Assembly (NCBI GenBank): GCA_021825655.1
Contig: JAKAGU010000001.1
Span: 50,358 to 114,357, forward strand
Reading direction: 5' to 3'
From: a bacterium
GTDB lineage: Bacteria; Patescibacteriota; Doudnabacteria; UBA920
DNA length: 64,000 bases
Below, piece by piece: positions 208 to 41,063 of the stretch. Below the pieces are notes generated by a model. That model was not told the DNA's origin. It searched no databases and worked only from the letters and a program-made list of their open reading frames with translations. Each line of letters starts with the position of its first letter. Position 1 is the first letter of the stretch. The translations under genes and the position numbers were made by a program.

Positions 208-1302
208 TTATTCCTGCGGTTTCTCCTCCACCGTAGCCGGGCTCAGAGTAATATGCTGGGCGGGCATTTCCAGGGGGTGGGTGGTGGTGATAAAAGTTTG
301 AAAACGGTTTTGCAGGTACTTCAGCAAAAAGGTTCTGCGGGTATCGTCCAGTTCGGAAAGCACGTCATCTAAAAGCAAAATCGGCTTATCTTCTCCGCGG
401 CTCAGGTAGTCGAGTTCCAAAATTTTTAAAGCCAATACCTGGCTTCTGAGTTCGCCGCGGGAAGAAAACGGGGACAAAAATAAGCCCTCGCTTTTCAAAG
501 AAAAATCGTCCCGGTGAGGCCCGACCAGGCAGGAACCGGCTAACGTTTCCCTGCTTTTTAGCGCTTCGAGTTTGACGCTAAAAGCCTGAGTTATTTCCTC
601 TAAAGTTTCGCCGGCTAAACTGTCGTAAGTCACCTCAACGGGCCGATGGAACCCCGAGATGGTGGTGTAAATATCGGAGATGCTTTGGTTGAGAAAATTT
701 ATAAACTGGCGGCGGGCAAAAATCAAACGGCTGCCAAGTGCCACCAACTGCTGGTTCCACTCGTGCAGGCTGTTTACCGCCCCGGTGTTGCCTGCGCGAA
801 TATCGGCCAACAGGCGGTTTTTTTGGTAAAGAACTTTTTTATACTGGGCAATGTCTTCCAGGTACTCCGGGCTTTTTTGGGAAAGCACCATGTTCAAATA
901 CTTGCGCCGGGTTTCGGGCGACTTGCTGAACATGTCCACGTCCGATGGGTCAAAAATAACCACCCGTAAAAACCCCTGGGCTTCGCGCCTTTTGGTTTTT
1001 ACCCCGTCAATTAAAAAATTGGCGTAAATTTTTTCCCGTCTGGAAAGGAAAATATCCAGCTGATGGCTCTCCCCTTCTCTTTCCACCAACATGCGGATTT
1101 CGGCACTAGCGGAGTCTTTTAAAAAAATAAATTCGTTATCGTCCCGAAAAGACTTGAATAAAGAGGCAAAATAGATGGACTCCAGCAGGTTGGTTTTACC
1201 CACGGCGTTCGGCCCGGTCAAAACCACCGTGTCGCTGGAAATTTTTAAATCTAAATCGGGGTAATTGCGGAAGTTTTTTATCTGAATATTTTTTACTTTC
1301 AT
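208..1302 (-). CDS. recF: DNA replication and repair protein RecF
   Basis: 364 aa with an N-terminal Walker A (GPNAVGKTN) and SMC-like RecF architecture. Sits next to dnaN and dnaA. Confidence 0.9.
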   Translation of the reverse strand: MKVKNIQIKNFRNYPDLDLKISSDTVVLTGPNAVGKTNLLESIYFASLFKSFRDDNEFIFLKDSASAEIRMLVEREGESHQLDIFLSRREKIYANFLIDGVKTKRREAQGFLRVVIFDPSDVDMFSKSPETRRKYLNMVLSQKSPEYLEDIAQYKKVLYQKNRLLADIRAGNTGAVNSLHEWNQQLVALGSRLIFARRQFINFLNQSISDIYTTISGFHRPVEVTYDSLAGETLEEITQAFSVKLEALKSRETLAGSCLVGPHRDDFSLKSEGLFLSPFSSRGELRSQVLALKILELDYLSRGEDKPILLLDDVLSELDDTRRTFLLKYLQNRFQTFITTTHPLEMPAQHITLSPATVEEKPQE

Positions 1303-1306
1303 GAAA

Positions 1307-2407
1307 TTAGTTCTTGATGGGCATTACCAAATAAAGATAACTGTCATTGTTTTCAGGGGTAAGCAGGCTGGGAGAACTGTCGTTGGTAACTTTTATAACC
1401 ACGTTTTCAGCAGTCAGGTTAGCCAAGCACTCCAACAGATAGTGAAAGTTCACCATCAGTCCCCCGTTTTGGCCTTCCACCCGCGAAGGCAGCTCCACTA
1501 CGCTTTTCCCCAACTCACCAGACTCGGTGTGCAGAACCAAAGCCTGGGCGCTGCTGTCATACTCAACCTTAACACTGGCGTTGTTTTGGCTAAACACCCC
1601 ACCCGCCCGCAAGCCATTAACCAAAGCCTGGCGGTTGGTGGTAATGGTGGTGGTGAACTCGCTGGGAATAATTTGTTCATAAGGCGGATATTCCCCGTCA
1701 ATTAAGCGGCTGACAATCTGGGTGTTGTTTAAAGTAAAAGAAATCTGGGTCTCGTTTACGGCAATCTGCACCTGGCCTTCTTGGGTACCAATATTCCTGG
1801 ACAGCTCAATGATTGTTTTTTGGGGTAGGATCAAACTGTGCGGTAGGTTGGGGTTTTCGCTTAAATTCAGCTTTTTTTCTGCCAGGCGGTACCGGTCGGT
1901 GGCAGCAATTTTCAAAACACCACCCTCAGTCTTAAACAATACCCCGGAAATTTCCGGCTGGGTTTGGTTGGTAGAAACCGCAAACACCACCTGGGTTAGG
2001 GCCTGCTTCAGCTCTTGGGAGGAAAGGGAGAAGTTTTTTACATTTTCCACCTCTGGTATCAGCGGGAACTCTTCCGCGGGCAAGGTCTTGATGGTGGTGT
2101 GGTAATTTTCTGTTTCCACCGACAACTCTGTTTCTTTGGTTTCAAGGGTAATGTTTTTGTTGGGAAGGCTACCAACCAGGTCACTTAGGGTTTTACAAGC
2201 TACTGTAACAACCCCCTCTTCTTCCACCTTGCACCTCACATAGGTTGTTACCGCAATCTCCAGGTTGGTTGAAGATATTTTCAGCAAGCCATTCTCGGTT
2301 TTTAACAACACGTTGCTTAAAATCGGCAGACTTACACTTGAAGAAATAATTCTTCCCACAGAGACTAAACCGGTTTTTAGGTTTTCCTGGGTGCAGATTA
2401 CTTTCAT
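1307..2407 (-). CDS. dnaN: DNA polymerase III beta sliding clamp
   Basis: 366 aa with beta-clamp fold signatures, in the canonical dnaA-dnaN-recF order. Confidence 0.9.
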   Translation of the reverse strand: MKVICTQENLKTGLVSVGRIISSSVSLPILSNVLLKTENGLLKISSTNLEIAVTTYVRCKVEEEGVVTVACKTLSDLVGSLPNKNITLETKETELSVETENYHTTIKTLPAEEFPLIPEVENVKNFSLSSQELKQALTQVVFAVSTNQTQPEISGVLFKTEGGVLKIAATDRYRLAEKKLNLSENPNLPHSLILPQKTIIELSRNIGTQEGQVQIAVNETQISFTLNNTQIVSRLIDGEYPPYEQIIPSEFTTTITTNRQALVNGLRAGGVFSQNNASVKVEYDSSAQALVLHTESGELGKSVVELPSRVEGQNGGLMVNFHYLLECLANLTAENVVIKVTNDSSPSLLTPENNDSYLYLVMPIKN

Positions 2408-2632
2408 ATATTTATATATAAATAATTTAATACAAAATAATAATAAGCGCTGTGGATTTGTGGATTAGCGGGATATACCAGTAATTTATCAATTTTTTCG
2501 TTTTGGCTTGTTGATAAAACAAGAACAAGTGTGGAAGATTTTATCCGCAGGAAAGTGAAGAAGAAACAAAAAACTTCATCCCCAACAATACCAACAGACA
2601 ACTACCATACAAATACACAACCTTACCCCCAG
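2408..2632. promoter_or_regulatory. dnaA-dnaN intergenic origin-type region (DnaA-box cluster plus AT-rich unwinding element)
   Basis: Tandem TGTGGATTTGTGGATTAG at about 2451-2468 and a TTATCCGCA variant at about 2541-2549. A nearly pure AT stretch (atatatttatatataaataatttaatacaaaataataataa) at about 2405-2445 matches a DNA-unwinding element. Confidence 0.6.
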
Positions 2633-3979
2633 CTATATAAACAGTTTATCCAGAATTAAATCCATCTCCTGTTTGAAGCCGTCTTTATCCTTAACTAAAG
2701 TCTCCATTTTTTCTACTGCATGCATTACAGTCGTGTGGTCACGCCCCCCAAAAAAATCACCAATTGAAGGGAAGGAGCTGTCCAGCTCCCGGCGAATAAG
2801 ATACATGGCTATCTGCCTTGGTTTTACAAATTCTTTTTTTCGCGACTGTTTTACCAGGTCTTCCATAGAGATGTTGTAGAATTCGGCGACCACCTCGGCA
2901 ATTTTTTTCGCTGAGGTGACTTTCTTTTTAGCCCCGACAATACTGGCCAAAATCCCTTTAGCCTGCTCCAAAACCAACCCCCGGTTATCCATTTGTTGAT
3001 AAATCGCCAGGCGGTTAAGTGCCCCTTCCAACTCTCGAACGTTATTTTGGATGTTTTCCGCGATATAAAAGAGGATTTCTTCCGGCATCTGCACCCCGCG
3101 TTTTTCCATTTTAGTGCGTAAAATTGCCATGCGGGTTTCGAGATCGGGCGCTTGGATATCCGCAATCATCCCCCACTCAAACCGGGAGATCAGCCGCTGT
3201 TCTATGGCCGGAATTTCTTTCGGCGGCCGGTCGGAGGTGATGATGATTTGCTTTCCGTTGTCGCGTAATTCGTTGAAAGTATGGAAAAATTCTTCCTGGG
3301 TGCCTTCCTTGCCCGCCAAAAATTGGATATCGTCTATAAGCAAAGCATCCACTTCACGGTAGGCTTTTTTAAAATCATCCATGCGCTTCTGGCTGATAGC
3401 GTTAATATAGTCGTTGGTAAATTTTTCACTTGTAACATATAGAATTTTTTTATGGCTGGATTCCAGAATGCGGTGCCCCACAGCCTGCATTAAATGGGTT
3501 TTACCTAAACCCACCCCGCCGTAAATGAAGAGCGGGTTGTATTGCGTGCCCGGATTTTTTGCCACAGCCTGGCTGGCTGCGTGGGCAAGCTCGTTATTTT
3601 TTCCGATTATCAGGGTTTCAAAAGTGTATTTTGGGTTTAAACCAGAGGTAAAAGCCGAGGGTCTCTCCTTGGTAAGGCCGGCACTCTCGGATTTTTTGAA
3701 CATATTGGTTTGCTGGCTGGCCTGTGTTGTGGGTTGGTTGCCAAGTTGGTATCTAATTTCTTTAATCTCTGGGGCAATCCCTTTCAGGCTTTTAAGCATT
3801 TCTTGGTGGTACTTAGCAGAAATCCAGTCGCGGTTGAAAGCGCTGGGTACGCCGATGATGATATGGTCCGCACCTCTTTCTAGGATGAGTGTGTTCTTAA
3901 ACCAGGTATTAAAGTTGGCCTTGCTCAGTGAAACTTCTAGACTGCCTAAGATTGCTTGCCAGAGCTGCTGATTAGTCAT
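2633..3979 (-). CDS. dnaA: Chromosomal replication initiator DnaA
   Basis: 448 aa with AAA+ Walker A ([10 protein letters not shown]) and the C-terminal DnaA DNA-binding signature. Confidence 0.95.
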
Positions 3980-4234
3980 ACTTTTGTTTCTAAAAATGGC
4001 GGTTCAATGGTTAAAAACACGTGTCTTATCTATTCTAACAGCCAGTTATCAACATGTAAAATTCATTTTTTTGCGCTTATTAATAAGGAAAAACTATTTA
4101 TCTGTTTATATCGTGTGGATAAATTGTGGGTTGGTCCAGGTTCCGAATTATCTTTGGCTTAGAATTGACTTTAACACCTGTTTTTTAGTATAATTAGCCA
4201 AGATATTATTAAAAAGTGAGAGAGGATTTCGCGT
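3980..4234. promoter_or_regulatory. rpmH-dnaA intergenic region with DnaA boxes and rpmH promoter
   Basis: Perfect DnaA box TGTGGATAA (reverse complement of TTATCCACA) at about 4114-4122. TTATCAACA at about 4046-4054 and several TTATCT-type half matches. rpmH promoter TTGACT, 18 nt spacer, TATAAT at about 4165-4194. Confidence 0.6.
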
Positions 4235-4369
4235 ATGAAGCGAACTTATCAACCCAAAGTTAAGCGCAGAAAGCGCAGGCATGGTTTCATGAAGCGCATG
4301 CAAACCAAAACCGGCCGCAATGTTTTGGCCAGAAGAAGGGCAAAAGGCAGAAAAAAATTGAGCGTTTAA
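4235..4369 (+). CDS. rpmH: 50S ribosomal protein L34
   Basis: 44 aa ([44 protein letters not shown]). Below the ORF-track size cutoff. Canonical position upstream of rnpA. Confidence 0.85.
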
Positions 4370-4378
4370 TTTTTCAGA

Positions 4379-4735
4379 GTGATGTTTAAAAAAGAACACC
4401 GCCTGGCCAAAACCAAAGATGTAAAAGCGGCATTTGAGCAAGGTCGGGGTTTTTTTAACCCTTATTTTTCAGTCAGGCATAATGCCAAAACAGGGCAGCA
4501 AAGGCGTTTTACAGTCGTGGTTTCTACTAAAGTGTCAAAAAACGCCACCCGACGTAATCGTTTAAAAAGGTTAGTAAGAGAGTTTGCCCGCATAAATATG
4601 GCAAATTTTTTACCCGGTGACTATATTTTGGCCTTAAAACCAAAAGCCAACCAATTACCAGACCCAGAAGTGGTGGTGGTTTTGAGTAAGCTCCTTATCC
4701 AAGCCAAAGTTTATGAAAATAAGAGAATTGTCTAA
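4379..4735 (+). CDS. rnpA: Ribonuclease P protein component
   Basis: 118 aa basic protein with an RnpA-like RNR motif region, immediately after rpmH. The first Met in the ORF track is a GTG. Confidence 0.85.
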   Translation: MMFKKEHRLAKTKDVKAAFEQGRGFFNPYFSVRHNAKTGQQRRFTVVVSTKVSKNATRRNRLKRLVREFARINMANFLPGDYILALKPKANQLPDPEVVVVLSKLLIQAKVYENKRIV

Positions 4736-4970
4736 AAATTTATTACTGGGATTGATTGGTTTGTACCAAAGATCCCTCTCCCCCGATCATGGCTGGTTTA
4801 AGCACCGACATCCCCATGGCTATTGTCGGTTTTACCCGAGTTGCAGCGAGTATGCTCGCCAGGCGGTAACCAAGCACGGCGCGGTTAAGGGGGCTGGTTT
4901 GAGCGCAGCACGGCTCTTAAGGTGCCACCCCTGGGCTCAGCCGAAGGTTGACAATGTACCCAATTCTTAA
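4713..4970 (+). CDS. yidD: Membrane protein insertion efficiency factor YidD
   Basis: 85 aa with the conserved YidD/haemolytic-domain motif (HGYCRFYPSCSEYA). Overlaps the rnpA 3' end as in many bacteria. Confidence 0.85.
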   Translation: MKIRELSKNLLLGLIGLYQRSLSPDHGWFKHRHPHGYCRFYPSCSEYARQAVTKHGAVKGAGLSAARLLRCHPWAQPKVDNVPNS

Positions 4971-4985
4971 TTTTAAACCAAACCC

Positions 4986-5696
4986 ATGTTTCTTGTTTCT
5001 CTGTACAACGAAATCATCTATCGTCCCCTTCTAAACCTTTTGGTTTATTTTTACCACTACATTCCCGATATTGGAGTGGTGATTGTGCTTTTAACCATAC
5101 TGATTAGGCTGCTTATGGCGCCCAGCTTCCATAAGTCTTTAAAGAGCCAGAAGGCAATGACCGAGCTGCAGCCTAAGCTTAATGAGGTTAAGGAAAAGTA
5201 TAAGGATGACAAGGAAGGCCAGGCGCGGGCTATGATGCAGTTGTATAAAGACCACCAAATTAACCCGCTTTCTTCCTGTTTGCCTCTTTTGGTCCAGTTT
5301 CCCATCTTAATTGCCCTTTATCAGGTTTTCAGCAAGGCTTTAAACAATCACTTAACCGGTTTGTATGCTTTTGTACCCAAACCGGAGACCATCAACCCCT
5401 TCTTTTTACACCTAATGGATTTGTCCAAACCCAGCATAGTTTTGGGCGTGCTAGCCGGCTTGGCCCAGTTCTGGCAGTCGAAAATGATGCTGCCCAAAAC
5501 TTCAGCAGCTTCGCAGGATGCAACCACCAAAGCAATTCAGATGCAAACCACCTATTTTTTGCCTATTGTTTCCGTGGTGATTGCCATTAAGTTGCCGGCT
5601 GGCCTGCCTTTGTACTGGCTGGTGACAACTCTCTTCGCCGTCGGCCAGCAGTATTGGCTGGTGAAAAGACAGCAACCCCAGGCTCCGCGTTCTTAA
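4986..5696 (+). CDS. yidC: Membrane protein insertase YidC/Oxa1 family (short form)
   Basis: 236 aa polytopic protein of Oxa1/YidC type in conserved rnpA-yidD-yidC synteny. Confidence 0.85.
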   Translation: MFLVSLYNEIIYRPLLNLLVYFYHYIPDIGVVIVLLTILIRLLMAPSFHKSLKSQKAMTELQPKLNEVKEKYKDDKEGQARAMMQLYKDHQINPLSSCLPLLVQFPILIALYQVFSKALNNHLTGLYAFVPKPETINPFFLHLMDLSKPSIVLGVLAGLAQFWQSKMMLPKTSAASQDATTKAIQMQTTYFLPIVSVVIAIKLPAGLPLYWLVTTLFAVGQQYWLVKRQQPQAPRS

Positions 5697-5764
5697 ATTT
5701 TGGCGATTAGTTTCAGCGGCCATACTTTTCGCCGCTGGCTACTAATTACTAAATCTCGAAATCC

Positions 5765-6235
5765 ATGACCGACTACAATAAGATAGAAGCCGTCAAACAG
5801 ATAATCGGCCAAACCTTAGACCATCTCGGCGTACCCGGCAAGGTGGAGTTTGAAGAAAGTATTACCAAAGGGCTGATTTTTAATATTTCTTCCCCGGAAT
5901 CTTTTATGTTGATCGGCCGCCAGGGCGCCACCCTGCATGCTTTGCAGGTTTTGGTGCAGAATATCGCCGTCAAACAATTGGGCGGCCAGGAGCCGTTTTG
6001 GTTTACCTTAGACGTGGATGATTATAAGCGCAAGCGGGAATGGTATTTGAAAGAAACAGCCAAAGCTGCGGTAGACCATTTGAAAAAAACCGATAAGCCG
6101 GTGCGGCTGGAGTCGATGCCGGCTTACGAGCGCCGGTTTGTACATGCTTATCTGCAGGAGCATTTTCCCGATGTGGAAAGCGAGAGCCAGGGCGAAGACC
6201 CCCATCGGAAAATTGTTATTCGGTTTAGACGCTAA
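5765..6235 (+). CDS. jag: Jag/KhpB-like RNA-binding protein (KH plus R3H domains)
   Basis: 156 aa with a C-terminal R3H-like motif (ERRFVHAYL...HRKIVI). Conserved position after yidC. Confidence 0.75.
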   Translation: MTDYNKIEAVKQIIGQTLDHLGVPGKVEFEESITKGLIFNISSPESFMLIGRQGATLHALQVLVQNIAVKQLGGQEPFWFTLDVDDYKRKREWYLKETAKAAVDHLKKTDKPVRLESMPAYERRFVHAYLQEHFPDVESESQGEDPHRKIVIRFRR

Positions 6236-7168: not shown

Positions 7169-8359
7169 CTAGATGATTAAGGAGAGGGTGAGCCAAAATA
7201 TTAACGCCAAATCATTTTTAAAATATGGGTTGTCAATCTGGCCTTGGACCAGCAGGGTTATTATAAACAGCACCGCTCCTAAGCCGAAGGCGTTCCGGCG
7301 GTTTTTAACGCCCTGGTACAGCGCCAGAACAGATAAGCCAATAAAGCTTAACATGCCCAACAGTCCGGTTTCCACCCAAAAATCCAAGAAGATGTTGTGG
7401 GGGAAATTGTGCGTGTCCAGGTTGGGGTCGGTGTTGAGCTGCGGCCATTTTGTGGCAAAGCCGGTTAATCCCAAGCCGAAAATCGGTGACTGTTTTACGC
7501 CCTTAAGCCCTGTATTCCAGAGCGATAGGCGCGATACGGCCGATTTCTCGCCCAGGAAAGGCAAGATTACTCGATAACGGAGGTTGGGGGTAATTAATAC
7601 TATACCCGCCAGCGCCACGCCCGCCAGCAAAGCTGCGTACCTGAGCTTTTTATCTCCAGCGATTAGCACGTACAAGCCTATCCCCACTGCCAAACCCAAC
7701 CAGCCGGCCCGGGACATGGACAAAAATAACCCGACTGCTCCGAGCAGCCAGAACATAAAAAGTTTTTGGGTTAGCGGCAGGTGTTTGTAGCTGCGCACCC
7801 GTTCCATGAGGTCGGGCACCAGAAAAGCGAGCAATGGGGCGCTAAATAAAGCATAAAAATTTGGGTGCCCAAAAAAACCCAGTGCGCGCTTGGGTTCTAC
7901 GGCATTGCCCCAGTATTGGGGCGGCAGGCCGAAAAGCGTAAAGTATTGGACAATTGACCAGACGCCCATAATTCCCAGCAGCAAATAGGCGGCGTAAGTC
8001 CAAGCGTTTTTTGTGCCAGGGTTTCTGTGGAAAAGGTAGCCAAATAAAAAGAACAGGCTGATAGGCTGGAAAATAAGCACGATAAATTGCCCCAGGTTTT
8101 TTTGGGAAAAGCCCGGAACAAAAAGCGAGATCGCGCCTGCCAAAAAAAACAGGCCTACCAGCCCCAGCCACCATTTATTTAAGGACTTCAGCCAGAACCA
8201 AAAATCAGCCAGTTTTTGCTGCCGGGCAAAGTAATAGGCGAAACATAGCCAAACCAAGGCCACCCAAACCATTAACAGGTTTAGGGGCACTGGCCCGATG
8301 CTAAAACGTAATGCGTAAGCGGGGGCAAGGAGTAGGGTACAAAAGATTAAGTAAGACAT
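7169..8359 (-). CDS. O-antigen ligase (Wzy_C) family polytopic membrane protein
   Basis: 396 aa with about 10-12 predicted TM helices and a Wzy_C-like central loop (SMSRAGWLGLAVG). Tightly packed with the AKR and PBP1A genes, 3-4 nt gaps. Confidence 0.6.
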   Translation of the reverse strand: MSYLIFCTLLLAPAYALRFSIGPVPLNLLMVWVALVWLCFAYYFARQQKLADFWFWLKSLNKWWLGLVGLFFLAGAISLFVPGFSQKNLGQFIVLIFQPISLFFLFGYLFHRNPGTKNAWTYAAYLLLGIMGVWSIVQYFTLFGLPPQYWGNAVEPKRALGFFGHPNFYALFSAPLLAFLVPDLMERVRSYKHLPLTQKLFMFWLLGAVGLFLSMSRAGWLGLAVGIGLYVLIAGDKKLRYAALLAGVALAGIVLITPNLRYRVILPFLGEKSAVSRLSLWNTGLKGVKQSPIFGLGLTGFATKWPQLNTDPNLDTHNFPHNIFLDFWVETGLLGMLSFIGLSVLALYQGVKNRRNAFGLGAVLFIITLLVQGQIDNPYFKNDLALIFWLTLSLII

Positions 8360-37318: not shown

Positions 37319-38875
37319 GTGATACAATATATCATATATGATATATTAACTTTTATTACTATGACTACCCAAAAGATGATTGGCCAGCTAATCTCCAGAC
37401 TCCGCGAACAAAAGGGTCTGACCCAGGCGCAGTTTGCGAGAAGCCTTAAAACCAGCCAGTCCGCCGTGGCCCGCATGGAAAACGGTTTGCAGAACCTGAG
37501 TACGGAAATGCTGGAAAAAATTGGGGACATACTGAAAAAACCCCTGATTGCGCTGGCGGGAGACTCGGTTAATTTAAGGATTGAGGGCGGCCACAAATTG
37601 TCCGGCCGGGTTGCCACCAACACTTCCAAGAACGCCGCCATGGGCCTTTTGGCCGCCAGCTTGTTGAACGCCGGGCAGACTACCTTAAAAAACGTGCCAA
37701 GAATTGAAGAGGTTAACCGGATGCTTGAGGTGCTTTCAAGCATCGGAGTCAGGGCTGAATGGCAGGGCCAGGATTTAAAAATTACACCCCCGAAAAAATT
37801 CAATCTCAAGAACCTAAATGCCGAAGCCGCGGTCAAAACCCGCAGTATTTTAATGCTTATCGGGCCGTTGGTGCATTTGTTTAGGCATTTTAAGTTGCCG
37901 GTTGCCGGCGGCTGCAAGTTGGGTGCGCGCACTATCCGCCCGCATTTATATGCTTTAGAGAAGCTGGGTGTGAATATCCAGACCAGCCACGACCAGTATG
38001 ATATTAGCGTGCAGGGTTTGGCGTCCGCAGAGGTAGTTCTTTATGAAACCGGCGATACGGTAACGGAAAACGCTCTGCTGGCCGCGGCCAAATTGCCGGG
38101 TAGGACCGTTATCAAATATGCCTCCTCGAATTATATGGTCCAGGATGTATGCTTCTTTTTGGAAAAGTTGGGCGTGCGGGTTGAAGGTTTAGGCACTTCC
38201 ACTCTGGTTGTTCATGGCAAGCCGGAAATTAAGGCGGACGTGGAGTACTATTTAAGCGAAGACCCGATTGAGTCCATGCTTTTTTTGTCCATTGCTGCTA
38301 CCACGAATTCCAGCATCACCATTGAGCGCTGCCCTATAGATTTTTTGGAACTGGAACTGCTTAAGCTGGAAAAGATGGGCTTGAAATTCCAAATCCAAAA
38401 ACACTATAAAGCCCGCAACGGCCGGACTAACCTGGTGGATATAAAAACTTTGCCTTCCAAGCTTACGGCTTTGGAAGAAAAGATTCATCCCCTGCCTTAC
38501 CCCGGCATTAACATAGATAACTTGCCGTTTTTTGTCCCAATTGCCACGCAGGCCGAAGGCTCTACCCTGATTCATGATTGGGTCTACGAAAACCGGGCCA
38601 TCTATTATTTGGAATTATCTAAACTTAGGGCCAATATCATCCTGGCCGATCCGCATCGGGTGTACATTGAGGGGCCTACGGAGTTGCGCGCGGCCGAGGT
38701 AATTTGTCCCCCAGCCTTAAGGCCAGCAGCAATTATTCTGATTGGCATGCTGGCGGCCAAAGGCACTTCGGTGTTGCGGAACGTGTACTCCATTTCCCGC
38801 GGCTACGAGGATCTGGTTAACCGGTTAAAAAAACTGGGCGCAAAAATTGAAATCATCAACAGTCTTGGTATATAG
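37319..38875 (+). CDS. murA: UDP-N-acetylglucosamine 1-carboxyvinyltransferase (MurA) with an N-terminal XRE-type helix-turn-helix fusion
   Basis: The likely start is the internal ATG near 37358 (MTTQKMIGQLISRLREQKGLTQAQFARSLKTSQSAVARMENG, an HTH_3/XRE pattern). The EPSP-synthase-fold MurA body begins at LRIEGGHKLSGRVATNTSKNAAMGLLAASLL. The catalytic Cys loop is retained (LPVAGGCKLGARTIRPH). Confidence 0.8.
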   Translation: MIQYIIYDILTFITMTTQKMIGQLISRLREQKGLTQAQFARSLKTSQSAVARMENGLQNLSTEMLEKIGDILKKPLIALAGDSVNLRIEGGHKLSGRVATNTSKNAAMGLLAASLLNAGQTTLKNVPRIEEVNRMLEVLSSIGVRAEWQGQDLKITPPKKFNLKNLNAEAAVKTRSILMLIGPLVHLFRHFKLPVAGGCKLGARTIRPHLYALEKLGVNIQTSHDQYDISVQGLASAEVVLYETGDTVTENALLAAAKLPGRTVIKYASSNYMVQDVCFFLEKLGVRVEGLGTSTLVVHGKPEIKADVEYYLSEDPIESMLFLSIAATTNSSITIERCPIDFLELELLKLEKMGLKFQIQKHYKARNGRTNLVDIKTLPSKLTALEEKIHPLPYPGINIDNLPFFVPIATQAEGSTLIHDWVYENRAIYYLELSKLRANIILADPHRVYIEGPTELRAAEVICPPALRPAAIILIGMLAAKGTSVLRNVYSISRGYEDLVNRLKKLGAKIEIINSLGI

Positions 38876-39525: not shown

Positions 39526-39561
39526 TAAAAAAACAGCCCGTTGGAATGGGCTGTTTTTTTA
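39526..39561. terminator. Bidirectional intrinsic terminator
   Basis: aaaaaaACAGCCCGttggaatGGGCTGTttttttag. Confidence 0.65.
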
Positions 39562-40875
39562 GTTTGCGGAAGCTTGGGCAGGCGGTTTCGTGGCCAGCGC
39601 AGCTGCGCCCAGAAAAACCCAAAGCAGTAGCTGGGTTTGTTCAAGCGTGTAAAAATAGTGGTCAAACTGCATGAGGACAAAAATGGCAAAATAAAGCGAA
39701 AGTAACAGCATGCCCAAAAGACTGCCTTGCTTGGCAAGCCGTATCGCGGCTGGAACGTCTCGCCAAAACAGCCACAGTAGTATAAGCATGCCCGGCAAGC
39801 CTAATTCTGCGGCTGAGAGCAAAAAGTAGTTATGTACTGGTTGTTTTTCCCAGGGCTGCAACCTTTGGTTCAGGAATTGTTCCATATGAAGCACGCTCTC
39901 CCCTATTCCAACCCCAAACACTGGGTGGGTTTGAACCATTTTTAAACCAGCTTCGTTGTATTTCATTCTTTCCAGCGTGGAATTATCAGTGATTGTTGCC
40001 CGGGTGGAGAGCCAGGGCCAAAAAATTAACAAGCAAGAAATTATTGTGAGCGTAATGGCGAGCACAGGCAAACGCAAGCCCTGTGTTTTTTTTAGAATCA
40101 AAAAAATAAGCAAGGCCCCAAGCCCCCCAAGCCCTGCCAAATAGCCTGCCCGGGAAAAGGTTACCGTAAGACCAAAAAGGTTAAGCACGAGGAGGCAGGT
40201 GGCAAAAACTTGTCCAAATTTCTTTGGTGCGCTTAGAAGTAGGTATAGGGATATTACAGCAGATATTGCCAGAAAAGCTGAAAGCAGGTTGGGGTGGGGA
40301 AAGGTTCCATAACTGCGGATGTATACTGTTCCACTTGAAACAATTTTTGCTACCCCAGAAATACTGGGCCCAATCAGGTTTTCGCCCAGCCACTTTAGTC
40401 CAACTGACCTTTGCAACCAGAACTGAACCAGCCCCAAAATTGATTCAAGTGAACCTAGGCTGGCAAAAAGCCAAGCTAGCTGTTGTTTATTGGAAATCTT
40501 TCCAAGCATGATAACCGTTGTTCCATATGCAACAAGTAATTCCGCATATTTAAAGAAAAAATATAGGTTTAAGGATTTATAATCTTGAAAATGGATAATT
40601 AAGCCTAAAATAAGCCAAAAAATGAGTATTACAGGCTTTCTCACCACGTGGTAGAATGACTTTAATTCTCCACCACGTGGTAGAAATAAGCAGCACCACG
40701 TGGTGAGAAGTAATAAATCGCTTAAATATAAGGAAAATGAAGTAAAATCTGAATATGCCCCGGTTTGGTAAGCTGAATTTGAAAAAAACACATGCCTTAG
40801 GGGCAGGAACATACTAATAATGAATAAAAAAAAGCTTATTTTAGCGGCTTTTTGGAAAGTTTCCCGTGAAAACAT
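39559..40875 (-). CDS. O-antigen ligase (Wzy_C) family polytopic membrane protein (second copy in window)
   Basis: 438 aa with multiple TM helices and a Wzy_C-like loop (TFSRAGYLAGLGGLG). The 5' end of the ORF contains three ACCACGTGGT palindromes in different reading frames, so the N-terminus is uncertain. Confidence 0.55.
   Translation of the reverse strand: MFSRETFQKAAKISFFLFIISMFLPLRHVFFSNSAYQTGAYSDFTSFSLYLSDLLLLTTWCCLFLPRGGELKSFYHVVRKPVILIFWLILGLIIHFQDYKSLNLYFFFKYAELLVAYGTTVIMLGKISNKQQLAWLFASLGSLESILGLVQFWLQRSVGLKWLGENLIGPSISGVAKIVSSGTVYIRSYGTFPHPNLLSAFLAISAVISLYLLLSAPKKFGQVFATCLLVLNLFGLTVTFSRAGYLAGLGGLGALLIFLILKKTQGLRLPVLAITLTIISCLLIFWPWLSTRATITDNSTLERMKYNEAGLKMVQTHPVFGVGIGESVLHMEQFLNQRLQPWEKQPVHNYFLLSAAELGLPGMLILLWLFWRDVPAAIRLAKQGSLLGMLLLSLYFAIFVLMQFDHYFYTLEQTQLLLWVFLGAAALATKPPAQASAN
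40636..40705. repeat. Three direct copies of a ~16-bp element, each centred on the perfect 10-bp palindrome ACCACGTGGT (CACGTG core)
   Basis: tCTCACCACGTGGTAGAAtg, tCTCCACCACGTGGTAGAAat and agCAGCACCACGTGGTGAGAAg. Core-to-core spacings are about 29 and 23 bp, not multiples of 3. Confidence 0.6.
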
Positions 40876-40988
40876 ATATACTATTTACAAAATAAACAAT
40901 TTATGGTATAATATATTATAAAGAAATTTGCCGAATCCATAGGCATTTTATCATGCTCTGGGTTTATGATATAATTTTCGGGTCTAAC

Positions 40989-41063
40989 GCCTTCGTAGCT
41001 CAATGGATAGAGCAAATCCGTCCTAAGGATGAGATGTAGGTTCGATTCCTACCGAGGGCACCA
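40989..41063 (+). tRNA. tRNA-Arg (anticodon CCU)
   Basis: Acceptor gccttcg/cgagggc (one G-U pair), D-arm gctc-aatggata-gagc, anticodon stem aatcc/ggatg with loop gTCCTaa, T-arm gtagg-ttcgatt-cctac, then ACCA. The upstream region has a TATAAT-like -10 (tatggtataat). Confidence 0.8.

Follow-up and report, generated by a model that had tools for sequence, protein, structure and literature searches.

A conserved array of CACGTG-centred palindromes within a Wzy_C-family gene of Doudnabacteria and its relation to parS-type sites

The stretch of DNA analysed here, referred to as the window, comprises 64,000 nucleotides of a genome from the Patescibacteriota lineage Doudnabacteria (GenBank assembly GCA_021825655.1, contig JAKAGU010000001.1), and contains three closely spaced palindromes centred on CACGTG in the 5′ coding part of a gene for a Wzy_C-family (O-antigen-ligase-like) protein. 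This array exists as described, does not arise by chance and has been conserved in evolution as a DNA element: the motif is under selection at the DNA level, occupies a position homologous to that of canonical parS sites in related genomes, and is located close to the replication origin. We regard it as an evenly balanced proposition that a ParB-family dimer uses the three copies as a variant form of parS-type site, within a multi-site, centromere-like island in the gene; the identity of the binding protein and a function in segregation are what we infer from these comparisons. A preliminary description of the array had proposed an operator array for a dimeric regulator. The idea of a dimeric protein binding a CACGTG palindrome is retained, whereas the operator, although possible, is now less supported than a ParB-family site, because relatives carry perfect canonical parS sites at homologous positions.

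A palindrome array under selection as DNA

The palindrome ACCACGTGGT is present in three copies (B1, B2 and B3; Table 1), with start-to-start distances of 29 and 23 bp, and is found nowhere else in the window or in approximately 14 kb of flanking sequence beyond it. The shuffle expectation is 0.01 copies for the window, and 0 of 100 shuffles give three. The plain CACGTG hexamer is not enriched (12 occurrences in the window against 8.3 expected). Every copy lies within a longer near-palindrome, TTCT(C)ACCACGTGGT(G)AGAA, and the 16-bp centred form of the three is TCTACCACGTGGTAGA. B3 is the inverted form of B1, forming a perfect 15-nt inverted repeat (40638–40652 and 40695–40709). No fourth copy of the extended 19-mer element is present in the window even when three mismatches are allowed. 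The three CACGTG-centred palindromes within 70 bp that were described previously are therefore confirmed in every detail, as are their AT-rich surroundings (GC content 0.31–0.37 over 40400–40999) and, to within a few base pairs, the distance to a plus-strand tRNA-Arg(CCT) gene at 40989–41063, which measures 284 bp rather than about 290 bp.

The array sits 170–240 nt into the open reading frame (ORF) and encodes the end of transmembrane helix 2 (TM2) together with a short variable loop preceding TM3. An earlier suggestion, in which translation would start downstream of the array, is ruled out by the conservation of the N-terminus among homologues. A protein database search returned 361 homologues, and the best 120 of these span 80–100% of the query, all but three of them at least 91%. 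When 29 homologues are aligned, the first 55 residues rank among the most conserved, with F23, G39, Y41–T45, S48–L51 and D53 invariant.

For comparison we used 79 genomic loci of relatives (designated by L numbers), drawn from Patescibacteria metagenome-assembled genomes (MAGs) and each approximately 7 kb long. The gene order DUF5665 – tRNA – wzy – rlmH is kept across loci L004–L055. Orthologues could be anchored on the LYLSD codons in 47 cases, and 31 of these 47 contain at least one palindrome. Approximately 25 orthologues, with 43–57% protein identity, carry one to four copies of a palindrome with the consensus TTCTACCACGTGGTAGAA at the same position; CCACGTGG or CACGTG occurs in about 25 loci at ORF nucleotides 170–260 and almost nowhere else in the 7-kb loci. 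Across all 79 loci, ACCACGTGGT is found 37 times within the gene and not once in 391 kb of flanking sequence.

The 57 sites in the anchored orthologues yield the logo TTYTACCACGTGGTRRRR and fall into fixed slots counted from LYLSD: +29 in frame 2, reading TTW; +52 in frame 1, reading PRG; and +72 or +81 in frame 0, reading HVV. In-frame PRG repeats at +73 and +94 provide alternative slots. The slot of B2 is the most widely kept, and its central CGT encodes the near-invariant Arg67. Sites are spaced by 13, 16, 20, 21, 23 or 29 bp, with 20–23 bp the commonest.

Codon usage within the slots is close to fixed. PRG is encoded as CCA CGT GGN in 27 of 27 instances, although CGT accounts for only 14% of the other Arg codons in the same genes (P = 6.5e-24); HV is encoded as CAC GTG in 9/9 (the CACGTG palindrome at slot +72/+81); and the TT of TT[WC] is encoded as ACC ACG in 12 of 13, against a background of 9% for ACG. 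The invariant protein motifs YGTFPHPN and FDHYFYT, used as controls, are by contrast synonymously saturated, with observed codon entropy approximately as expected, so that shared ancestry does not explain the fixed codons. Moreover, the PRG and HVV residues are missing from orthologues that lack the DNA motif. Because residues and motif are lost together, the conservation of the peptide is a by-product of the DNA element, with Arg67 representing the CGT at the palindrome centre.

The use of three frames, the differing copy numbers and spacings, and the fixing of synonymous codons in diverged orthologues strongly support the earlier view that the palindromes are DNA-level elements; a repeat maintained at the amino acid level would be expected in a single frame. 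The preliminary description had also reasoned that conservation of the N-terminal residues among orthologues would reduce the palindromes to coding coincidences. The residues are indeed conserved where the motif is present, but the two outcomes form a false dichotomy, since the residues are absent where the motif is absent, so that the peptide is dictated by the DNA. A dimeric DNA-binding protein recognizing a CACGTG-centred palindrome is the simplest candidate for reading the array.

Two distant orthologues, L050 and L055 (32–33% identity), have ACCACGTGGT-type palindromes such as CCCACCACGTGGTGGG at amino acids 292, 309, 337 and 389, in two frames (PRG and HV), which indicates that the association between motif and gene is either old or recurrent. 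A second Wzy_C paralogue in the window (396 aa, 7169–8359, minus strand), adjoining a class A penicillin-binding protein gene, contains neither CACGTG nor parS-like palindromes; the sites are thus specific to one orthologue group.

parS sites in relatives and further constrained sites in the gene

The canonical chromosomal parS site is TGTTNCACGTGNAACA, is usually origin-proximal and is present in 2–22 copies; the half-site GTTCCAC is bound by several ParB proteins (PMC7022226). We used TGTTNCACGTGNAACA as a yardstick, functional sites usually having no more than two mismatches to it.

Perfect canonical parS sites are located in or beside the orthologous gene in seven loci (L039, L053, L054, L058, L062, L064 and L079). 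L053 and L058 each have two perfect copies of TGTTCCACGTGGAACA; L054 has five perfect copies of TGTTTCACGTGAAACA in 4.8 kb, within the 2.8 kb at 486–3249; L079 has four perfect sites and one with a single mismatch; and L064 has three perfect sites and one other, all within the gene. L062 and L060 each have seven sites within the gene with two or fewer mismatches, and L039 and L036 have five or six parS-like sites each. Over the 79 loci, 49 sites with at most one mismatch lie inside the gene and 12 outside it, where 40 control palindromes of the same composition average 0.4. In L054 the sites span the Wzy_C gene, an IS200-like transposase gene and ispF/ispD.

The sites of relatives map to three positions in the window protein: amino acids 117 (perfect in L039 and L062), 181 and 331, corresponding to islands D, E and G described below. 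The loop slot itself (amino acids 67–78) is occupied by parS-like sites in L013, L033, L034, L036, L050 and L055, and L013 carries the parS-like sequence TGTTTCACGTGAAAAC on the exact codons that read CTACCACGTGGTGG in the window. With perfect or one-mismatch sites at homologous slots in L013, L036, L039, L062 and L064, the three palindromes of the window can be said to occupy a parS slot of related genomes.

The window sequence itself departs from the canonical site. TCTACCACGTGGTAGA agrees with parS at 10 of 14 specified positions and has four symmetric mismatches; it keeps the parS core CCACGTGG and has two symmetric changes per arm, from TGTTC to TCTAC. We therefore predict that it is a variant of the parS-type site rather than a canonical member, as it falls outside the sequence definition.

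A codon-entropy scan over the 47 anchored orthologues revealed discrete islands of near-zero synonymous variation elsewhere in the gene. Three of these (D, E and G) are 16-bp palindromes of the form TGTTNCA-NN-TGNAACA. At island D the codons are GTT in 42/43 orthologues, GCA in 31/31, TAT in 40/40 (never TAC), GGA in 34/34 and ACA in 38/42, with entropy of approximately zero. Island E, which holds a perfect half-parS GTTCCAC, has GTT in 31/34, TCA in 26/32, GGA in 32/40 and ACA in 29/33 (each P < 1e-8). Island G has GTG in 32/33 (P = 2e-23) and CTT in 29/41, and comes within one mismatch of parS only in some relatives (TGTTGCACATGAAACA). At all three islands each synonymous choice is the parS-matching one, and positions 5 and 12 vary freely, like the N of parS. 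D, E and G approach parS as nearly as the encoded motifs VAYGT, VSxGT and VLHME permit.

Islands A and C, on either side of the array, are not parS-like, but are each unique in the window and conserved at synonymous sites in the same orthologues; the codons of island A (sense TCCTTATATTTAAGCGAT) are TCC in 36/44, TTA in 39/43 and AGC in 43/46. At approximately 40147–40161 the codons for T-F-S-R-A read ACCTTTTCCCGGGCA, that is TTTCCCGGG, half of a Noc binding site, and in about half of the orthologues they read TTTTCACGTGGA, a parS-like half-site (TCA in 25/47, CGT in 24/45).

A ParB-family reader and the alternatives

These observations suggest how the array could work. A dimeric protein would bind the three ACCACGTGGT palindromes, which are written into the Wzy_C gene through a short, sequence-tolerant loop using all three frames. 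Across Patescibacteria the Wzy_C gene would host parS-type palindromes as loading sites for ParB dimers, and the window lineage would have two kinds of site: three TCTACCACGTGGTAGA copies in the loop slot and three near-parS sites with one to three mismatches. A ParB-family CTPase nucleating on these sites would mark the origin-proximal region for segregation and for loading of SMC, any influence on wzy expression being secondary. The binder could be the chromosomal ParB, if its specificity has shifted or broadened, or else a paralogue resembling Noc. Either is to be expected because the arm changes include the position that discriminates parS from the Noc binding site (NBS), and four residues suffice to reprogram ParB-family specificity between parS and NBS (PMC7383237). 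A ParB-family binder is more likely than a classical regulator.

Comparison with known centromere sites brings out both resemblances and departures. Like the chromosomal parS sites of ParB (Spo0J), the window element is a 16-bp palindrome, its inner 8 bp CCACGTGG being identical (compare the P. aeruginosa and M. xanthus type TGTTCCACGTGGAACA), and it is origin-proximal, present in several clustered copies and tolerated in coding sequence (PMC7022226). Unlike canonical parS, its arms are TCTAC rather than TGTTN (changes at positions 2/4 and 13/15), three copies are packed into 70 bp of one gene, and a variant with a perfect core shares the gene with sites that have perfect arms and imperfect cores. 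A precedent for a new 16-bp palindrome in the ParB family is the site of the Firmicutes ParB paralogue Noc, ATTTCCCGGGAAAT, in which each half-site also departs from parS at two positions (PMC7383237); these are half-site positions 2 and 7 rather than 2 and 4, and NBS are dispersed over the chromosome whereas the window sites are clustered in one gene. The short, closely spaced repeats also recall plasmid and phage centromere arrays (F sopC, R1 parC and P1 parS), where they nucleate a partition complex; those arrays are non-coding and lie beside par genes, whereas the window array is chromosomal and within an ORF, with no adjacent par gene.

Several points weigh against a parS-type site. We found no gene for ParA or ParB in the 64-kb window, the approximately 14 kb flanking it or the loci of the 79 orthologues, using Pfam searches of the 40 larger ORFs of the window and precomputed annotation for the genes at 45.4–51.1 kb and the flanks. 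A tblastn search of the window and the 79 loci with Soj and Spo0J queries gave no match, and the neighbours of loci with canonical parS encode TrmB, MarR, IS200, IspDF and others, with no ParB among them. We assume that this genome encodes a ParB, approximately 78 kb of it having been covered; the motif count likewise refers to about 78 kb. One of the changed arm positions is the one that separates parS from the Noc site (PMC7383237), and with four arm mismatches that include this position a canonical ParB is not expected to bind the variant well. The perfect TGTTCCACGTGGAACA palindromes of L053 (1652–1667 and 2601–2616) and L058 (1628–1643 and 2477–2492) lie on either side of a TrmB-family regulator gene that directly precedes the Wzy_C homologue; these pairs are compatible with either parS or an autoregulated operator pair, and resemble an ordinary autoregulated arrangement. 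Finally, a single gene contains both ACCACGTGGT-type and TGTT..AACA-type sites, each under selection, which two binders would explain at least as well as one. Where the two types coexist – in the window clade and in the distant L050 and L055 – the TGTT..AACA-type sites never have a CACGTG centre, and lineages with perfect canonical parS are without ACCACGTGGT; this mutual pattern points to two binders.

The principal alternative, which we consider rather unlikely, is that the array is an operator for a dimeric regulator outside the ParB family (winged-helix, XRE or TrmB-type) controlling wzy from its 5′ coding region, either as a roadblock or through an internal or antisense promoter, in which case the resemblance to parS would be convergent. 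Palindromic extended sites at about two helical turns (20–23 bp being commonest) are typical of operators, but the spacing as a whole ranges over 13–29 bp and is unphased. The dyad symmetry is present, and island A and copy B1 are overlapped by hexamers that weakly resemble promoter elements; the sites nevertheless lie 170–240 nt inside the ORF and not at a promoter. Intragenic roadblock operators, such as the CcpA cre site and the sites of CodY and PurR, are similarly palindromes in 5′ coding sequence, although they occur singly, as members of large regulons in which many copies are promoter-proximal, whereas the window motif is confined to one gene in the sequence examined.

Candidate regulators for such an operator are encoded nearby in some genomes: a TrmB-like gene lies between the palindromes in L053 and L058, a MarR gene adjoins wzy in L064, and in the window a 518-aa fusion of an XRE-type HTH_3 domain with MurA/EPSP synthase is encoded 0.7 kb downstream of wzy (37319–38875, plus strand). 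The fusion is possibly a DNA-binding enzyme and a candidate binder; it is present in full length downstream of wzy–rlmH in L004 and L010, and in ten more loci the MurA part alone is seen before the flank ends. However, no regulator gene is consistently adjacent across the 79 loci, and no further copy of the motif, and hence no second target, was found in the approximately 78 kb of window and flanks. Unrelated low-GC bacteria do use (TG)ACCACGTGGT(CA) in intergenic promoter regions: metagenome contigs L120 (~895–945), L169 (~1135–1185) and L195 (~865–905) have pairs or triples beside AT-rich, promoter-like sequence, which are presumably ordinary operators of some regulator. Against an operator in the Wzy_C gene, the palindromes of relatives match the 14 specified parS positions exactly, with up to five to seven per locus, and three more codon-constrained parS-like sites are distributed over 1 kb of the same gene.

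Two other identities for the motif were considered and dropped: a DnaA box, as canonical DnaA boxes exist near dnaA, and a LexA box, as no copy of the motif is located upstream of recA.

It is improbable that the copies act in the transcript, where copies 1 and 3 could form a stem of at least 15 bp that slows translation between TM2 and TM3 or provides an RNase III or regulatory hairpin. The 106-nt sense RNA does fold with –40 kcal/mol, compared with –20 ± 3 for shuffled sequences (z = –6.8), and the flanks of different copies are complementary (TTCTC with GAGAA). Orthologues with a single copy (L015, L022, L041 and L051) cannot fold in this way, however, and the RNAalifold consensus of 11 orthologues reaches only –2.9 kcal/mol, with four trivial pairs inside the palindromes and no long-range helix shared by the orthologues. 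In D-type sites, positions 5 and 12 show no covariation (G·G being commonest), Rfam has no matching structured family, and RNA pairing would leave the other parS-like sites of the gene unexplained.

That TTW, LPRG and YHVV merely happen to share a 10-mer, perhaps through small duplications, is highly improbable: although R67 and G68 are near-invariant among closer homologues, some homologues have in-frame LPRGE or PPRGG repeats, and phage RecA LPRGR is sometimes encoded as CTACCACGTGGTAGA by chance, here one DNA word underlies three unrelated peptides in three frames, its codons are fixed (27/27, 9/9 and 12/13) against a background of synonymous saturation elsewhere in the gene, its palindromic flanks are conserved too, and motif and residues are lost together.

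Returning to the ParB-family reading, a broader version is that the chromosomal centromere of a large branch of Patescibacteria is embedded in the Wzy_C gene, with ParB-type sites in all three frames that mould the sequence of the protein, and that one lineage has switched or duplicated its recognition code, from TGTTC to TCTAC arms with the CCACGTGG core unchanged. We put this forward tentatively, as a doubtful extension; such a switch would imply a co-evolved ParB or a new Noc-like paralogue. If the centromere lies in a gene whose product enters the membrane during translation, the origin region could in addition be anchored to the envelope.

If parS-type sites are indeed what the gene contains, they would offer an initial entry to the study of how chromosomes segregate in the Candidate Phyla Radiation (CPR), with a predicted centromere at a conserved, recognizable gene of uncultured organisms. 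Canonical, core-variant (CATATG, CATGTG, CACATG) and arm-variant (TCTAC) sites fill homologous slots across lineages, and would amount to a natural experiment in the co-evolution of ParB-family specificity, complementing the laboratory trajectory from parS to NBS. The pairing of motif and gene could help to find origin-proximal regions in fragmented CPR MAGs. The gene would also illustrate dual coding with unusual clarity, as its DNA-binding sites determine conserved residues such as the 'invariant' Arg67, the CGT at the palindrome centre; dual coding of this kind calls for caution in interpreting protein conservation.

Genomic context and wider searches

The array is 36.7 kb from dnaA, origin-proximal and within the usual range of parS sites; the probable origin lies between dnaA and yidC (Table 1), and the GC skew turns positive at approximately 6 kb. 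A replication origin at the switch in gene orientation at about 40.9 kb was rejected, as the GC skew keeps its sign there and dnaA and oriC are located at about 4 kb. SMC is encoded approximately 18 kb beyond the right end of the window.

Table 1. Location of the palindromes, the other constrained islands, the host gene and the origin region (window coordinates)
Feature	Position	Strand	Sequence	Codons or reading	Remarks
recF	208–1302				Pfam
dnaN	1307–2407				Pfam
dnaA	2633–3979	minus			Pfam
Probable oriC	~3980–4985				between dnaA and yidC; DnaA boxes at 4046 and 4114; rnpA in between
yidC/jag	4986–6235				
yidC	4986–5696	plus			
Host gene, Wzy_C-family (O-antigen-ligase-like)	39559–40875	minus		438 aa, polytopic	Pfam Wzy_C, E = 5e-18
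Island G, parS-like	39878–39893		TGTTCCATATGAAGCA	V328–Q333	frame differs from D and E; 3 mismatches
Island E, near-parS	40327–40342		TGTTCCACTTGAAACA	V179–T183	1 mismatch to canonical parS
Island D, near-parS	40519–40534		TGTTCCATATGCAACA (sense TGTTGCATATGGAACA)	V115–T119	parS arms, central TA; 2 mismatches to TGTTNCACGTGNAACA
Island C, near-palindrome	40603–40617		TGGCTTATTTTAGGC	W87–G91	3′ of array in gene sense
Palindrome B1	40638–40656 (core 40643–40652)		TTCTCACCACGTGGTAGAA	Y-H-V-V in minus-strand ORF	slot +81 from LYLSD anchor, frame 0
Palindrome B2	40666–40685 (core 40672–40681)		TTCTCCACCACGTGGTAGAA	L-P-R-G-G	slot +52, frame 1
Palindrome B3	40694–40709 (core 40695–40704)		CACCACGTGGTGAGAA	T-T-W, end of TM helix 2	slot +29, frame 2
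Island A	40714–40734		TCCTTATATTTAAGCGATTTA	S48–L54, mostly I54 in orthologues	5′ of array in gene sense

A metagenome-wide scan for ACCACGTGG-N4-24-ACCACGTGG returned at least 120 unrelated, mostly high-GC loci; no Wzy homologue is among the matches listed, and the scan is uninformative on distribution within the CPR. Scans of viral contigs for the array and for TCTACCACGTGGTAGA gave nine unrelated coding matches, for example RecA LPRGR. Our literature search found no paper linking CACGTG motifs to Patescibacteria or parS to O-antigen-ligase genes, and no description of parS in Patescibacteria or of a conserved membrane-protein gene as a parS platform; among the papers listed (15 of 59 matches), ACCACGTGGT figures mainly as the eukaryotic MYC/MAX E-box.

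Rfam searches identified tRNAs only. Twelve tRNA genes are distributed singly or in small groups over 17699–46332, those for Arg-CCT, Ala-GGC and Pro-CGG being interspersed among small ORFs immediately 5′ of the Wzy_C gene. Just to the right of the window, six consecutive genes with T4SS_pilin domains (L206, 11354–14390) are followed by those for FtsH, RNase III and SMC.

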